From Octopus vulgaris (Eukaryota), in assembly GCA_951406725.2 (NCBI GenBank), contig OX597839.1, positions 2,232,001-2,296,000 on the forward strand: a stretch of 64,000 bases of DNA, given 5' to 3'. The notes beneath the pieces are model-generated. The model saw only the letters and a program-made list of their open reading frames with translations. It ran no database searches and was not told the DNA's origin. A program made the position numbers and the translations under genes. The stretch's first letter is position 1, and each line of letters starts with the position of its first letter. Of this stretch, positions 6,765 to 62,875 are shown in pieces.

Positions 6765-8157
<1,393 letters not shown>

Positions 8158-9964: not shown

Positions 9965-11015
9965 AATTAAAGAGGTCAAATTGTTAGTGTTCGTATAGCA
10001 GACACTAGCGCGTAACGAAAACACCGAAATGTTTGATGTATCAAGAAATACTGTCTCGAAAGTAATGACAGACTTTGAGAAAGAGGGAAAAACCTCCTCG
10101 TCGAAACAACTCCGGAAGAAAACCAAATCTTTCAGGTAAGGGATCGTCGGACTCTTCCGCGAATTGTTGGAAAGGATCACAAAAGTACAGCTCCCAAAAT
10201 TACTGCAGAGCTTAATGACCACCTCGAGAACCCATTTTCCACAGAAACTCTTCGCCGGGAGATGCACAAAGCAAGATATCACGGGAGGTTTGCAATCATA
10301 AAACCACTAATTTCAAAAGCAAACGTTGCAAAGCGTTTAGAGTGGCGTAAAAACCGACACATTTGGTCCCTAGAGCAGTGGAAGAATGTTATTTTCTCGG
10401 ACGAGTGATCTTTAACTTATTTCCTACTCCGGCCGAATATACGTGATGAGACAGCCAAAAGAAGCATTTGACCCAGATTGCCTTCTTCCAACTGTTAAAC
10501 ATGGAGGAAGATCTGTAATGATCAGAGGGGCTATATCTTGGAAATCCGCCGACCCAATGATTTCCCTTCATGGCAGAATTAATAGTCAAGACTATTTAAG
10601 CATTTTATCTGATCAAATTCATCCTAAGGTTGCGGAACTGTTTCCGGAGGGAAACGCAATCTTTCAGGATGATAATGCATTAAAGCTGTTACTGAATGGC
10701 ACGAGCAACATTCTAGTGAAGTTGAACATCTTATCTGGCCACCACAGTCCCCAGATCTCAATATTATTGAAAATTTATGGTGCATTTCAGAAAAACAAAT
10801 AAGGAGTCGATATCCTCTCACATCATCACTACAAGAACTGGAGACTGTTTTAGTTGAAGAATGGACAAAAATTCCTTTGGGAACAATTCAAACTTTGTAC
10901 GAGTACATACCTCGTAGAATTCAAGTTATAATTACTGCCAAAGGCGGTCCTACTCCATATTAAAATAAATTCGTTTGAAATTTTAAGGTGTTTCCATTAT
11001 TTTGTCCAACCCCAG
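9965..11015 (+). mobile_element. Tc1-like (DD34E-type) transposon, defective, left end missing
   Basis: Motifs WKNVIFSDE, PTVKHGGRSVM, IFQDDNA and WPPQSPDLNIIENLW lie across frameshifts. Right TIR ggtgtttccattattttgtccaaccccag followed by TA. Confidence 0.9.
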
Positions 11016-18269: not shown

Positions 18270-18474
18270 GTTAATCCAAACATGAACAAAGAGAAAACAC
18301 AACAACGCGAGGACATGGAATAAGTATAGTGTTATTGGACGCTCAGGAAAGGAAAGAAAGAAGGAGGATTTAACGTTTCGAGTGGAGCTCTCCGTCAGAA
18401 GTATAGAAAAAAAGAAAAAATCCAAAGAAGGGAAGACGGAGAAAGAAAATCGCCAACAACGATACACACGCGGT

Positions 18475-18478
<4 letters not shown>
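18270..18478 (-). mobile_element. PLE-type terminal repeat with degenerate hammerhead motif
   Basis: The island lies between (TA)n arrays. Minus strand reads CTGACGG-A-GAG-ctcca-CTC-GAAA-CGTT. A related remnant is at 20745-20830 (+). Confidence 0.65.
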
Positions 18479-18539
<61 letters not shown>

Positions 18540-18541
<2 letters not shown>

Positions 18542-19050
18542 CAAATATTGCATAAAAAACAGTAGACGACAAGACAAAAACCTAAAGAAACATCTAACAA
18601 GAGCGAAATTCTCTTCGGAAACTAAAACAGAATTCTTTGCAAAAGAGTGCGGAGATGGTAGATGTGGGATCTGCAGCAACTCCACCTACAAATATATAGA
18701 GGGAGACAAAAGACAAAGAGATGGAATTTTAAAATGGTTACGTATTTAAAGTAAATGCAGATATGAACTGCAAGACGCAAAACGTTATATACTGCATAAC
18801 CTGCCCCACGTTCAAGGAGGATTACATAGGTGAAACTGGTAATTCTTTGTGCCAGCGAGTCAGGATTCACCGACAACATGTTCGGCAGGAAGAACTACGC
18901 AAGATACCACTAAGTACACACCTAGCTACGTGTGGAGAAGGAAAATGTTAGATCTTTCCCTTCTACAAATGTCCGAAGAACGACACCTCTTTCAGGAGGA
19001 ATATGGAAAAATATTTCATAGCTAAGTTCTCCCCAAAATTAAATGGCTGA
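18540..19050 (+). mobile_element. Penelope-like element 3' coding fragment (GIY-YIG endonuclease)
   Basis: Reads RRQDKNLKKHLTRAK...KECGDGRCGIC, then NCKTQNVIYCITCPTFKEDYIGETG..L.QRVRIHR...RRNMEKYFI.KF.PKLN*. Confidence 0.9.
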
Positions 19051-19102
19051 AAATATCTCTATAATAAGCTGTACTAGATGAAGGACCAAACTTGCTAAGT
19101 AA

Positions 19103-23446: not shown

Positions 23447-24194
23447 CGTATTCGTATGGGAATCGTATTGGGTTTTCTGTTAGATGATATTTCAATCGGC
23501 TTTAACATATCTCCATATATAATAAACACGGTACGATAGATATGTAAATGCGGGCGCATGTACGTGTGTGCACGTTGCGTGTATGCGTGATGACGTTTAT
23601 CAGTGGATATCTATCTATCTATCTGGTTATCTACACACACATCAATTTATATACATTATTTTGAAGGCATAATTACCCTATTTCTACTCAACCCACACAA
23701 ACACACACAAACACACACACACTCATACACACACACACACACACACACACAAAGGAGTATGCAAATTGGAGCAAAACAAGGTGGAGAAAATAGTACTCGA
23801 ATACCAAAAGCAGAGTAAAATATTATTTTATTAAAACTGGAAAAATCACGGGTTTCTCGTGACCGTTCATCAGACAATTGCAATAACACCGAACAATTAA
23901 ATGAGGTGAGTTTATATATAATATCATATAATGTAATATGATATACTATATTATAATGTAATATAATGTATGGGAGCGCAGTCGTAGCTGTGTGGAGGCG
24001 AGGATGTGGCCGTGTATGTTTACGGTGTGTTTATGTCGTTTAGCAGTTCGACAAAAGTGACCGATAGAATAAGTACTAGGCTTACAAAACATAGGCCCTG
24101 GGGTCAATTTCTTCGACTAACGCCCTTTAAGGTGATGCTCCAGCATGGCCGAAGCCAAATGACTGAAACAAGTAAAGGAATAAAAGAATATATG

Positions 24195-29380: not shown

Positions 29381-30472
29381 TTTTAAATTTAAGAATACAC
29401 GAAATTAGAAACTGATTACTATGACAGAATAAAAACTTCAAAAGGTCACTCTGCCCTGATTCAGTGAGTTGTATAGTATATACGCGTAATGTCTATATAC
29501 TTGCCTGTCTTTATGTATGTTTGCTTTATGACAATTTTTTAAAAATTAATAAAAAAATATTGATATTCTGCACGTGTTCGTGTTGATCTAGTAATAAGTA
29601 GAACGATCGATCGCAGAATCTTAAAGCGTCGTCAAAAAATATGTTACAGCATTTTTTCCAGCTCTTTATGTTCTGCATTGAGATTCCTTCTTAGATTAAA
29701 TTTGCTTTTCATTCTTCTAGTGTCAATTAGATACTTCTGAGATGAGGAATTTATTATAGTGTAAATTCGTCAGAGTGGTTGTCCTCGCCTTGAATGTTGC
29801 TTTCACTACGTTTCAGCTGTGTACATTCCTCTCTTCTTCAGGTGTCTTGTGATTCACGAGTGAAACGGACAGCAAAAGGATTAATAAAGAAATAATTATC
29901 TTATATTGATTTAGTGTGGACAGAAAGTACTCGACCAAACTTTTCCACATAATGCGTTACGCTTTGTTCAAAGATTGTTGAATGAAACAGTCAGACATTT
30001 AAGAGCAAGTAGTTCACTTAATAGGATAACCAAATTCTCATCGTCGAAACTGACGGAGATCCATATTTCATGTGTTTATAAGGGTGTGTCTCTGTGTGTT
30101 TCAGAGATCGATTCTCCTAATACTCTTCCCGAAAGAGTTTTGATCAAAGTTCAGATACCTCAAATTTCTTGAAATCGATCTTCTTAGGCAGTCTAACCTG
30201 AGTATTTTTTCATTAAAGCTAGAATAGCTTAAGATTTGAGAATTAAATTCCAAATTATTCGAACTGGGATCAAATTTCATTTCGAAACGAATATATATAA
30301 TATATATGTATATATATATATATTTAAATTAAAATATAGTAATTTTTACCTTTTTTCTTGAAATTATATATTTCTTTCAGTATTGATATTTTTCGGTTCA
30401 TTTCTCCCGATATTTTGATCACACACACACACACACTTGTGTGTCTGAATGTACGTATGTCAATATATAGCA

Positions 30473-32346: not shown

Positions 32347-32715
32347 AAGCTTGAGAGGAGGTTGGATGGAACCTACACTCGCCTCCTTATGAGAACTCAA
32401 AATCTCTCGTGGAAGCGCCATCCAACCAAAATGCAAATATATGGGAAACTACCACCTGCATCATCTCTTGTGAAAGGTAGGAGAGTCCAGTTTGCTGGAC
32501 ATTGTTGTAGAGCTGAAAAAGAAGTCATTTCTACTCTTCTCCTCTGGAAGCCATCTACTCGCAATACCAGAGGGCGCACACTCTCCTACCCTGATGTAAT
32601 CTCCAGGGATACAGGCATCCACCAACAGGACCTCCGTAATGCCATGATGGACCGTGAAGCCTGGCGTAGCATGGTAAATTCCATTGTCTCGACCACGGTC
32701 GAACAATGATGATGA
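32345..32715 (+). mobile_element. RTE-group LINE 3' end
   Basis: Reads [10 protein letters not shown]...NLSWKRH...[11 protein letters not shown]...LLLWKP...RGR...DREAWR, followed by a (TGA)n tail. Confidence 0.85.
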
Positions 32716-50269: not shown

Positions 50270-50445
50270 TAAGGCCAGCAATTTCCGGGGAGAAGGTAAG
50301 TCGATTATACCGGTCACAGTGCTCAACTGCCGAGAGAACGAAAGGCAAAGTCGACCTCGGCGCAATTTGAACTCAGAATGTAAAGACGGGCGAAATGGCG
50401 CTAAGCATTTTACCCAGTGTGCTAACGATTCTGCCAACTCACCGC

Positions 50446-53791: not shown

Positions 53792-54023
53792 TACGAGCGG
53801 GTGCTGAAAATTTCTTGGCTTTAAGGTTAGTGCGAAGGGCCTAGTTGGAGGTCAAACTTTCCGAGTTCTTTAATAGGACTTCGAAAAACTCAAGGACTGT
53901 TACAATGTGTGTATGAATCTGAGAGGGGAATATGGTGAATAAAATCATAATTAACTAATCCTTCTGTATTTTCTCTTACCCAAAGCCAGTAACTTTCTAG
54001 CACCCCTTGTGTGTGCGTGTGTG

Positions 54024-54141: not shown

Positions 54142-54345
54142 GGTGCAGAAAAGTTCCTGGCTTTAAAGTTATTGCGAACGTTGGAGGCCCAACGCACGAA
54201 GTTCTTTTACAGGTCTTAGAAAAACTGAAGGACCGCTGCAATAAATGTGTGAATCTGAAAAGGGAATATGTTGAATAAAACCATAGTTAAACGATCCTCC
54301 TGTATTTTCTTTTACCCAAAGCCAAAAACTTTCGGGTACCCCTTG
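53792..54345 (+). mobile_element. Two tandem mariner-derived MITEs (53792-54009, 54137-54345)
   Basis: TIRs gggtgc.gaaaa.ttc.tggcttt / aaagcca..aactt...gcaccc. They retain the transposase C-terminus [20 protein letters not shown]. Confidence 0.8.
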
Positions 54346-54441: not shown

Positions 54442-54523
<82 letters not shown>

Positions 54524-54545
54524 TATATACTTTATTTTAAGCAGC

Positions 54546-54599
54546 AGCAAAAACTGTCTGATGAACGGCAACGAGAAACTCAGAGTAACAGATTTTGTT
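54546..54599 (+). ncRNA. Putative minimal type I hammerhead ribozyme
   Basis: CTGT-CTGATGA-ACGGCAACGA-GAAA-CTC-A-GAG-TA-ACAG has an intact core, a GUA cleavage triplet and an extendable stem I. The stem II closing pair is mismatched. Confidence 0.75.
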
Positions 54600-54694
54600 G
54601 AATTTTTCTGCTGCTTAAAATAAAGCATATTACTCTACCACTGGTATTTGAGTACTCTTTTTTCCACCTTGTTTCACATTTATGTGTTTACTCC

Positions 54695-54754
<60 letters not shown>

Positions 54755-61627: not shown

Positions 61628-62475
61628 GGTCTACACAATCACCCCTCGTAAAACAACACTATAATCTCCAATATCCGATATATAATACCAACAATTTCCA
61701 TTCTACAAAATTATACAGCTCGTACAATGCACACCAAATGCCCCACCATCCATACACTAAAACGTCTTTCCCTAAAACGTTGTGTGACGCTGTTCTACAA
61801 AAATCACCCCTTGTAAAATATTACGACACAGTTATATAGCTCGTGCGTTGCGTAACCTTTTCAGCCATTGACCGCACACTAAAAGACTCATGACAAATCA
61901 TGCAACAAATATAACTGGCACTCCGTCGGTTACGACGACGAGAGTTCCAGTTGATCCGATCAACGGAACAGCCTACTGATTGGATGTGTTATCATGTACA
62001 TGTTTTTTTTTGTCTTGGTGGCCTACAGCAAATATTCTGCTGAATACCACAGATTTTCTTGTCAGTTGTTTGACCATAACCAGTTGAACGATATGAACAT
62101 TTCTGATCACGAGTAGGAGTAGTGGAAAACATCAGGACAATTTGTTGATAGGGATTCTCTGGAATTTGAATACTTCAGCCATGGAATCAAGGGTGTTTCG
62201 TTCATCAACCTCAATAAAATCCTTATTCAGGGACCTTTTGAGTAGGATGGGTTACTCGATCTATACAAAAGTCTAACTCCTTGACCCCCCCACCAGACAC
62301 TCCTGCAAGGTCGTATGCAGTTTATCTTGGTATAAGTTCACCATGTCGTGCACGCATGGTTGTGATGCATGTACCCAGTGTACCCTTATCAGACGGGTAG
62401 TCGTGATGGGTATATTGAGCTTCATATATTTGCTATCCAGCGTCACTTTGATAGCATGCGCTAGTCTCTTACTCA

Positions 62476-62511
<36 letters not shown>

Positions 62512-62559
62512 ACGACGACGATGACGACGATAACAATCGACCACATACAGGGCAACTCA

Positions 62560-62875
62560 GGAGACACAGTGGTCAATATGCTGCACATATAGCCTCCCAC
62601 ATAATGAAAATTGGTGTGAACATAAACCATGACAGGTTGTACAAAATGCTGGATGAAGTTACTATTCTTTGGAATTTCAGTGTTCAGACTGATCGGGGGG
62701 AATACAGGCCAACCTATTGGATATCGAGAAAATTCATGCTGAAAAAACGTCTCTTGATGGATGTTGCAGCCCTAGCTGACAAAACCAATCTTTGAAAACA
62801 GCTGAAAAATTGAGTGAATATAAAAACTTGGAGATAGGAATGAGATGAATGTGGCATCAGAAAGCAACAGAAACA
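62560..62875 (+). mobile_element. R4/Dong-like LINE restriction-like endonuclease remnant
   Basis: Reads TILWNFSVQTDR..IQAN..DI...LLMDVA..AD...EKLSEYKNLEI....MW across frameshifts, matching the RLE domain pattern. Confidence 0.75.

Follow-up and report, generated by a model that had tools for sequence, protein, structure and literature searches.

A minimal hammerhead motif between (TA)n arrays of an octopus genome marks the probable truncated, two-armed 3' end of a Penelope-like retrotransposon

Background

Penelope-like elements (PLEs) that bear an endonuclease (EN+) typically begin, at the 5' end, with an inverted copy that is 5'-truncated, and have a tail of 30-40 bp at one end (Craig et al. 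2021, PMC8557442), and the same layout of inverted copy plus tail has been described in rotifers (PMC3846280). Frangieh et al. (2024, PMC11167929) report for PAc, an element of the anole, that both strands of the target are cut and extended, that the tail equals the spacing of two internal start sites of the reverse transcriptase (RT), and that the hammerhead ribozyme cuts only in the presence of protein, uncut RNA being the main template. According to Cervera and de la Pena (2014, PMC4209133), the hammerheads of PLEs occur for the most part singly and scattered, with no activity as monomers and weak activity as dimers. A retrozyme is by definition a tandem array (PMC7229834; bioRxiv 10.64898/2026.07.22.740005), and the second of these sources derives retrozymes from pLTRs.

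The Hydra clade of PLEs is marked in its ORF by RWK, DKT, a CxCX5C linker and the lack of CCHH, and (TA)n is the listed target in 26 of its 27 families (PMC8557442). The hammerhead table of the same work (File S2) covers 25 Hydra families; counted by eye, it gives 16 with a 1-nt loop III, 15 in which stem II rests on a mismatch and five with a helix of the form 'actc N gagt'. Among the literature matches listed for hammerhead together with octopus or cephalopod, the ribozyme term occurs only in Craig et al., and ribozymes go unmentioned in the accessible part of a 2026 octopus repeat annotation (PMC13282606).

Here we analyse a window of 64,000 nucleotides from Octopus vulgaris (contig OX597839.1, positions 2,232,001 to 2,296,000), within which a short non-coding island stands between two (TA)n arrays. 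A previous sequence-only reading had seen in it a 170-bp hammerhead cassette with a self-inverted flank, either a solo pLTR or a retrozyme-like mini-retroelement that targets TA microsatellites. Our results suggest that the island is a piece of a larger element, that it belongs to a dispersed family with two alternative 3' ends and that its closest described relatives are the hammerheads of the Hydra clade.

Results

Anatomy of the island

The features of the island are collected in Table 1. An inverted and a direct piece are joined head to head, sharing 2 nt (54546-54547). The inverted arm stops exactly at what we call the short end, 38 nt past the predicted cut (+38), and the direct copy at the long end, +109/110 from the same site, where 54696 is the last base that is not TA. 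Two Penelope-like traits are present: the 5' end holds an inverted copy that is 5'-truncated, and one end only has an optional tail. The layout is, by analogy, the published PLE arrangement of an inverted copy plus an optional tail. Other copies of the family continue upstream of 54546 with different sequence (see below), and the direct copy is thus 5'-truncated at that position.

Table 1. Coordinates of the island's features and of a second family copy in the window
Feature	Positions	Strand	Basis
Left (TA)n target array, preceded by (TATG)n	54448-54529		Sequence
Inverted piece of 18 bp, 5'-truncated, copied from 54608-54625; stops at the short 3' end, no tail	54530-54547	-	18/18 complementary
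Direct piece of 151 bp, 5'-truncated, copied from the 3' end of the element (ribozyme, linker, tail)	54546-54696	+	Family contigs, second copy
Extended stem I: 54546-54552 with 54593-54599, past a 1x1 internal loop (54553/54592)	54546-54599	+	Folds
Type I hammerhead motif, whole	54554-54591	+	Core, stems, match to published Hydra-2_aMil
Stem I (4 bp), CTGT / ACAG	54554-54557 / 54588-54591	+	Sequence
Core, CTGATGA	54558-54564	+	Sequence
Core, GAA-A	54575-54578	+	Sequence
Helix III, ACTC-A-GAGT, palindromic, 1-nt loop	54578-54586	+	Sequence
GTA site	54585-54587	+	Predicted cut 3' of 54587
Optional 71-nt tail between short and long 3' ends	54626-54696	+	Loose ends into TA; retained in second copy
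Bulged tail hairpin (5 bp + 4 bp, 3-nt loop, 3-nt bulge)	54631-54654	+	Fold, family variants, Hydra likeness
Right (TA)n target array	54697-54752		Sequence
Second family copy, diverged	23752-23913	-	BLAST E 6e-11, 72% over 123 columns

The inverted repeat of about 26 bp that had been noticed before does exist, since BLAST aligns it with 24 of 26 positions identical, but it is perfect over 18 bp only (54530-54547 / 54608-54625), the remainder being TA flank and a look-alike at the junction. Nor does it bracket the cassette, as had been thought: 71 nt of family sequence lie beyond the right arm, to 54696, and the repeat is therefore not terminal. The locus holds a single ribozyme-bearing unit, and no tandem units were found there. 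Just to the left of the island, two similar stretches of about 180 bp (53810-53990 and 54160-54345) were seen by eye, with a (TG)n array between them.

A hammerhead motif with a weak stem II

The island contains the constant parts of a type I hammerhead (CUGANGA, GAAA, NUH, the type I order and stem I), and the motifs named by the sequence-only reading, like the (TA)n on both sides, all stand where it had placed them. Its description of the core as intact needs qualifying: CTGATGA, GAAA, GTA and stem I are in place, but the motif is not fully canonical, as stem II has just two pairs (C-G and G-C) under a GCAA loop and sits on an A54565·A54574 mismatch. The G10.1-C11.1 pair at the base of stem II is missing both here and in the second copy, and no variant is listed at A54565 or A54574 in four sequencing runs at a threshold of 3%. 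Stem II of this hammerhead is unusually weak.

A generic type I descriptor, composed only after the motif had been seen, matched once in the window, both strands included, and in one of 150 block-wise shuffled windows. The segment 54545-54605 folds with a z-score of -2.88, equalled by none of 200 shuffles, while the stretch 54546-54625 of the direct copy (z +0.40) folds no better than its shuffles. In Rfam, no hammerhead family reached its gathering score in the window or was among 30 matches with E up to 10; those obtained were driven by microsatellites or were weak and unrelated.

In the predicted monomer, the core mispairs with helix III. The active monomer fold, with a helix III of 3 bp and a CAG loop, is predicted to lie 4.7 kcal/mol above the minimum with a pair probability of at most 0.02, and this penalty is the same with or without the inverted arm. 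Formation of helix III is predicted to be possible in a double hammerhead, which is the cofold minimum at -24.0 kcal/mol, against -21.8 kcal/mol for two monomers, a small predicted margin of 2.2 kcal/mol. The 1-nt loop III and the preference for a dimer thus hold as previously described; the view that helix III could form in a dimer only is slightly too strong, given the 3-bp alternative in the monomer at +4.7 kcal/mol. These models predict that, in tandem parent transcripts, the ribozyme works as a double hammerhead, perhaps with the help of protein. The lone island copy is likely to be inert in cis, because there is a single ribozyme at the locus and the second copy in the window lacks the cut site.

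A dispersed repeat family with two 3' ends

Judged by similarity, the island belongs to a dispersed repeat family of many copies. The second copy in the window retains the core and the tail hairpin; about 17 nt around the cut site are missing, as are the 3' strands of the hammerhead stems and the inverted arm. It has about 35 nt more of upstream sequence, and lies between repeats that are TA-rich or (TG)n.

At least half of 15 words sampled from the island were present in 20 of 24 listed sequencing runs (seven studies, five organism codes), the best of which may be the source of the window itself; the 24 include no RNA run and are uninformative on expression. In four of the 20 runs, 468, 3485, 10819 and 465 contigs matched the island, numbers that reflect many variant copies rather than copy number, and 421, 2028, 6148 and 280 of them, respectively, were at least 95% identical to it. 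At the 3% threshold, six substitutions and four indel rows are listed, all within 54592-54665. None of the six substitutions falls on a paired or core position: the common change of A to G at 54592 affects the unpaired base of the internal loop of stem I, which remains unpaired, and those at 54640 and 54649 lie in the loop and the bulge of the tail hairpin. No variant of at least 3% is listed for 54546-54591, a conservation that comes without compensatory pairs and in which a missing row does not prove identity.

The ends of the family copies were followed through the loose ends of contigs, of which 24 of 289 rows are listed, with upstream sequence traced for 30 letters. Among the rows listed, 25 contigs of one run (X4) and 36 of another (X5) extend past 54546 on the upstream side into AT-rich sequence different from the arm, at an agreement of about 0.5. 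Behind 54606, again among the rows listed, the consensus passes 54625 into TA in runs X4 (43 contigs) and X17 (7) and begins to do so in X1 (4), and in X5 (89 contigs) it continues into the tail instead; the median length of these loose ends is 9-17 letters, so that fewer than half of them reach the short end. Behind 54693/54697, the listed contigs enter TA (36 in X5, 6 and 4 in X17). The family has two 3' ends, at +38 and at +109/110 from the predicted cut.

Joints of other kinds were also met, in contigs that are few and could be assembly artefacts: a fold-back at 54546 (two contigs, X1), a strand switch from 54550 to 54622 (one contig, X5) and a local tandem duplication of the ribozyme (one contig). 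The arm itself (54527-54544) has next to no cover in the four runs. Scans with exact patterns for the core or the tail gave no metagenome contig, no genome contig, and zero and one viral contigs; the viral match (L001) was set aside as chance, having no stems and lying in GC-rich DNA unlike the island.

Comparison with the Hydra consensuses

The likeness to Hydra elements begins with the ribozyme, as the stem I, the arms of helix III and the base at the cut site of Hydra-2_aMil are identical to those of the island (PMC8557442). It extends to the spacing of the 3' end. Without Penelope-18_HMa, whose listed motif is at its 5' end, 10 of the 24 published Hydra consensuses end 30-48 nt past the cut and 11 end 88-153 nt past it, the others ending at 63, 70 and 355 nt; the two ends of the island fall one in each mode. 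The tail offers a further parallel. Among six printed Hydra consensuses, compared by eye, three extend beyond the cut by enough for the comparison. Hydra-2_Amil and Hydra-2_Ajap, the described elements nearest to the island, have a bulged hairpin like the island's, at +44 and +39 against +45 in the island, with stems that differ yet pair, and Hydra-1_Crog has an imperfect hairpin at +48. The tail hairpin of the island folds with z -1.52, and 18 of 200 shuffles do as well. Its pattern matches the window three times against 0.25 expected, two of the matches being the family copies, but it was built from the compared sequences and is therefore not an independent test. The third match, at 50318-50336, was rejected because it sits in an unrelated repeat. 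We propose the hairpin as a candidate recognition element of the reverse transcriptase.

In other respects the island stands apart. A stem II of 2 bp or an A·A base is found in none of the 25 Hydra hammerheads of the table, which shows stems of 3-7 bp and, where the base is mismatched, U·U or U·C. The octopus family Hydra-1_Obim has a ribozyme different from that of the island (PMC8557442), and the core motif of the island was not found in the searched text of that paper's supplement. For Penelope-13_HM, a Hydra element, an inverted 5'-truncated copy is noted, as in the island (PMC8557442).

The island thus combines a hammerhead near the 3' end, with a helix III of the Hydra type, and insertion into (TA)n. 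Membership of its family in the Hydra clade is likely on this resemblance, as judged against the Hydra table alone. An origin from Naiads was rejected, as these are reported to lack canonical hammerheads.

Coding sequences and other mobile-element remains

Pfam was run on 150 frames of the window (147 of the 540 non-repetitive frames of at least 35 aa, and three picked by eye), and gave no RT hit among them; the sole GIY-YIG hit lies 35 kb from the island and does not align with it. This hit belongs to a decayed 3' part of a Penelope-like ORF (18538-19050, plus strand) that starts at an (AT)n array and has a stop near 19047. The remnant has a linker finger of the form CX4CXXC, a GIY-YIG domain at 18733-18948 (Pfam E 5e-4), a Neptune-type layout and 66-76% identity to RT + GIY-YIG polyproteins; downstream, near 19072 and ahead of a 276-bp tandem repeat, there may be half a hammerhead. 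Pattern searches for DNA loci of the remnant's relatives gave 57 and 167 matches, none of which was confirmed. Six Penelope-like RT + GIY-YIG polyproteins (P0003, P0009, P0031, P0056, P0087, P0101) are filed under bacterial gill symbionts of bivalves and are likely to be host DNA in symbiont assemblies. In another protein (P0002), a translated (TA)n run leads straight into a Penelope-like RT, which points to the insertion of a 5'-truncated copy into a TA microsatellite.

Other sites in the window recall the island. On the minus strand, two (TA)n arrays also enclose an island at 18270-18477. It has at 18398 a minimal hammerhead in degenerate form, whose core, CTGACGG, is one base off, and is likely to be the pLTR of a different Penelope-like family. 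A relaxed scan found a core (CTGAAGA...GAAACGTA) at 29841, minus strand, without a clear stem I, which may be a decayed pLTR hammerhead or a chance occurrence. The window also holds remnants of Tc1/mariner-type transposases on the plus strand, at 10079-10960 (Pfam HTH_Tnp_Tc3_2 E 7e-12, DDE_3 E 3e-7) and, with a weak HTH hit only, at 6900-7870. Two plus-strand frames (32400-32710 and 62277-62795) gave no Pfam hit and resemble what we take to be the C-terminal ends of an RTE-type element and of a LINE with a restriction-like endonuclease, respectively.

Discussion

Origin of the island

We consider it probable, with reasonable though by no means full confidence, that the island stems from the 3' end (pLTR) of a Penelope-like retrotransposon with an endonuclease, likely a member of the Hydra clade, and that it was inserted into (TA)n heavily 5'-truncated and as two head-to-head pieces. 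The pLTR option of the sequence-only reading finds support in the anatomy of the family and in the published Hydra hammerheads and layout, and the targeting of TA microsatellites in the flanks of the island, in the loose ends of other copies that run into TA and in the (TA)n targets of published Hydra families. The insertion could have come about as follows. By analogy with the anole PAc, a Hydra-type protein with RT and GIY-YIG domains would attach to the RNA close to the tail hairpin, nick both strands of the TA array and begin reverse transcription at two internal sites of the RNA's 3' module. From the long start (+109/110), 151 nt would be copied through the uncut ribozyme, the copy stopping at the base of the extended stem I; from the short start (+38, 5' of the hairpin), 18 nt would be copied; and the two cDNAs would be joined head to head over their 2-nt overlap.

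As no reading frame is tied to the family, the main alternative is a non-coding, retrozyme-like parent that is a few hundred bases long, descends from a Hydra pLTR and is copied in trans by a Penelope-like enzyme; the island would be a truncated two-armed insertion of this parent. We regard this as possible, if on the whole unlikely. The very large numbers of matching contigs, most of them at least 95% identical, speak for such a parent, as do the descent of retrozymes from pLTRs and the one contig with a local tandem duplication of the ribozyme; abundant solo ribozymes are, on the other hand, also expected from truncated PLEs (PMC4209133). The 30 letters of upstream sequence are AT-rich and without coding signal, but this does not discriminate, since Hydra 3' regions are also non-coding for 100-300 nt upstream of the ribozyme (PMC8557442). 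The locus has no tandem unit, and among the rows listed the loose ends at both 3' ends enter TA and not a next unit. The earlier suggestion of a retrozyme-like element accordingly fails for the locus, which is not a tandem array, and stands in so far as a longer non-coding parent RNA is possible, the upstream sequence having been followed for 30 letters.

A truncated pLTR insertion from another clade (Neptune, Nematis or Penelope/Poseidon) appears improbable. The window does contain the decayed end of a Neptune-type endonuclease next to a TA array (18538-19050), and small palindromic helices III also occur in PLEs of fly, rotifer and shrimp (PMC4209133), but neither this remnant nor the DNA downstream of it aligns with the island (best local score 28), and it is the Hydra consensuses that stem I, helix III, end spacing and tail hairpin match in combination. 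We find it very hard to maintain that the mobile unit is the 170-bp cassette, inverted flank included, whether as a mini-retroelement or as a MITE-like foldback. The cassette is compact and TA-flanked and folds well as a whole (z -3.11), but its repeat is not terminal, with 71 nt outside, and the arm is absent from the second copy; other copies, moreover, continue upstream with other sequence, inversion joints occur elsewhere (at 54546, and from 54550 to 54622), and the 3' end of the arm is used in other copies too, so that the self-contained element of the sequence-only reading finds no support. That a degenerate repeat should resemble a hammerhead by chance is scarcely credible, despite the lack of an Rfam hammerhead match and the non-canonical stem II, in view of the rarity of the descriptor in shuffled windows, the core retained in a second copy of 72% identity, the absence of listed variants of at least 3% from 54546-54591, and the close match to published Hydra hammerheads (PMC8557442).

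A shared 3' module?

With the Penelope-like pLTR as the preferred origin, the locus is ordinary debris of a known class of retroelement and a new family member. Only the tail hairpin and the stripped stem II merit further attention. We tentatively suggest, as an idea that may well fail, that Hydra-type elements of coral, sea cucumber and the octopus genome share an undescribed 3' module made of a dimer-dependent hammerhead and, about 45 nt further on, a conserved bulged hairpin. This hairpin would recruit the reverse transcriptase and set two starts, one at its own foot and one at the end of the tail. The present high-copy family would keep the module with a stripped hammerhead (a 2-bp stem II on A·A) that either depends on protein for cutting or has turned into a structural signal, perhaps as part of a non-coding RNA mobilised by Hydra enzymes. 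A thin search of the open-access literature found no description of the tail hairpin, and the terms 'hairpin', 'stem-loop' and 'stem loop' are absent from the main text of PMC8557442. The hairpin common to coral and sea-cucumber Hydra consensuses offers a concrete and mutable candidate for an RNA signal that sets RT starts, and the weak stem II a test case for how far a hammerhead can be stripped. The island is also a compact record of a Penelope-like insertion, in which each arm ends at a different start site.

Comparison with known systems

The island differs from MITEs and foldback elements, whose inverted repeats stand at both termini and are common to the copies, in having 71 nt outside the repeat and a second copy without the arm. 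With the non-LTR retrozymes of animals (PMC7229834; bioRxiv 10.64898/2026.07.22.740005) it shares a non-coding sequence of low GC content, a type I hammerhead and a relation to PLEs. Unlike them (PMC7229834), it has no tandem array of 150-450 bp units, of which two or more would carry a hammerhead, and instead shows a single ribozyme, an inverted arm and two 3' ends. The minimal PLE hammerheads (PMC4209133) have in common with the island the type I core, the extra base after A9, the palindromic helix III, a predicted dependence on the dimer and an occurrence mostly as solo dispersed copies; the island differs from them by the lack of the highly conserved G10.1-C11.1 pair and of a long helix II.

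Set beside the inverted-pLTR insertions of EN+ PLEs (PMC3846280, PMC11167929), the island is extremely short (18 + 151 bp), its tail has 71 nt against the published 30-40 bp, and a target-site duplication is unreadable within (TA)n. In both, a short and a long arm stand head to head, the tail is on one arm only and the target is AT-rich. The island copy extends through the cut site, as would be expected from an uncut template (PMC11167929).
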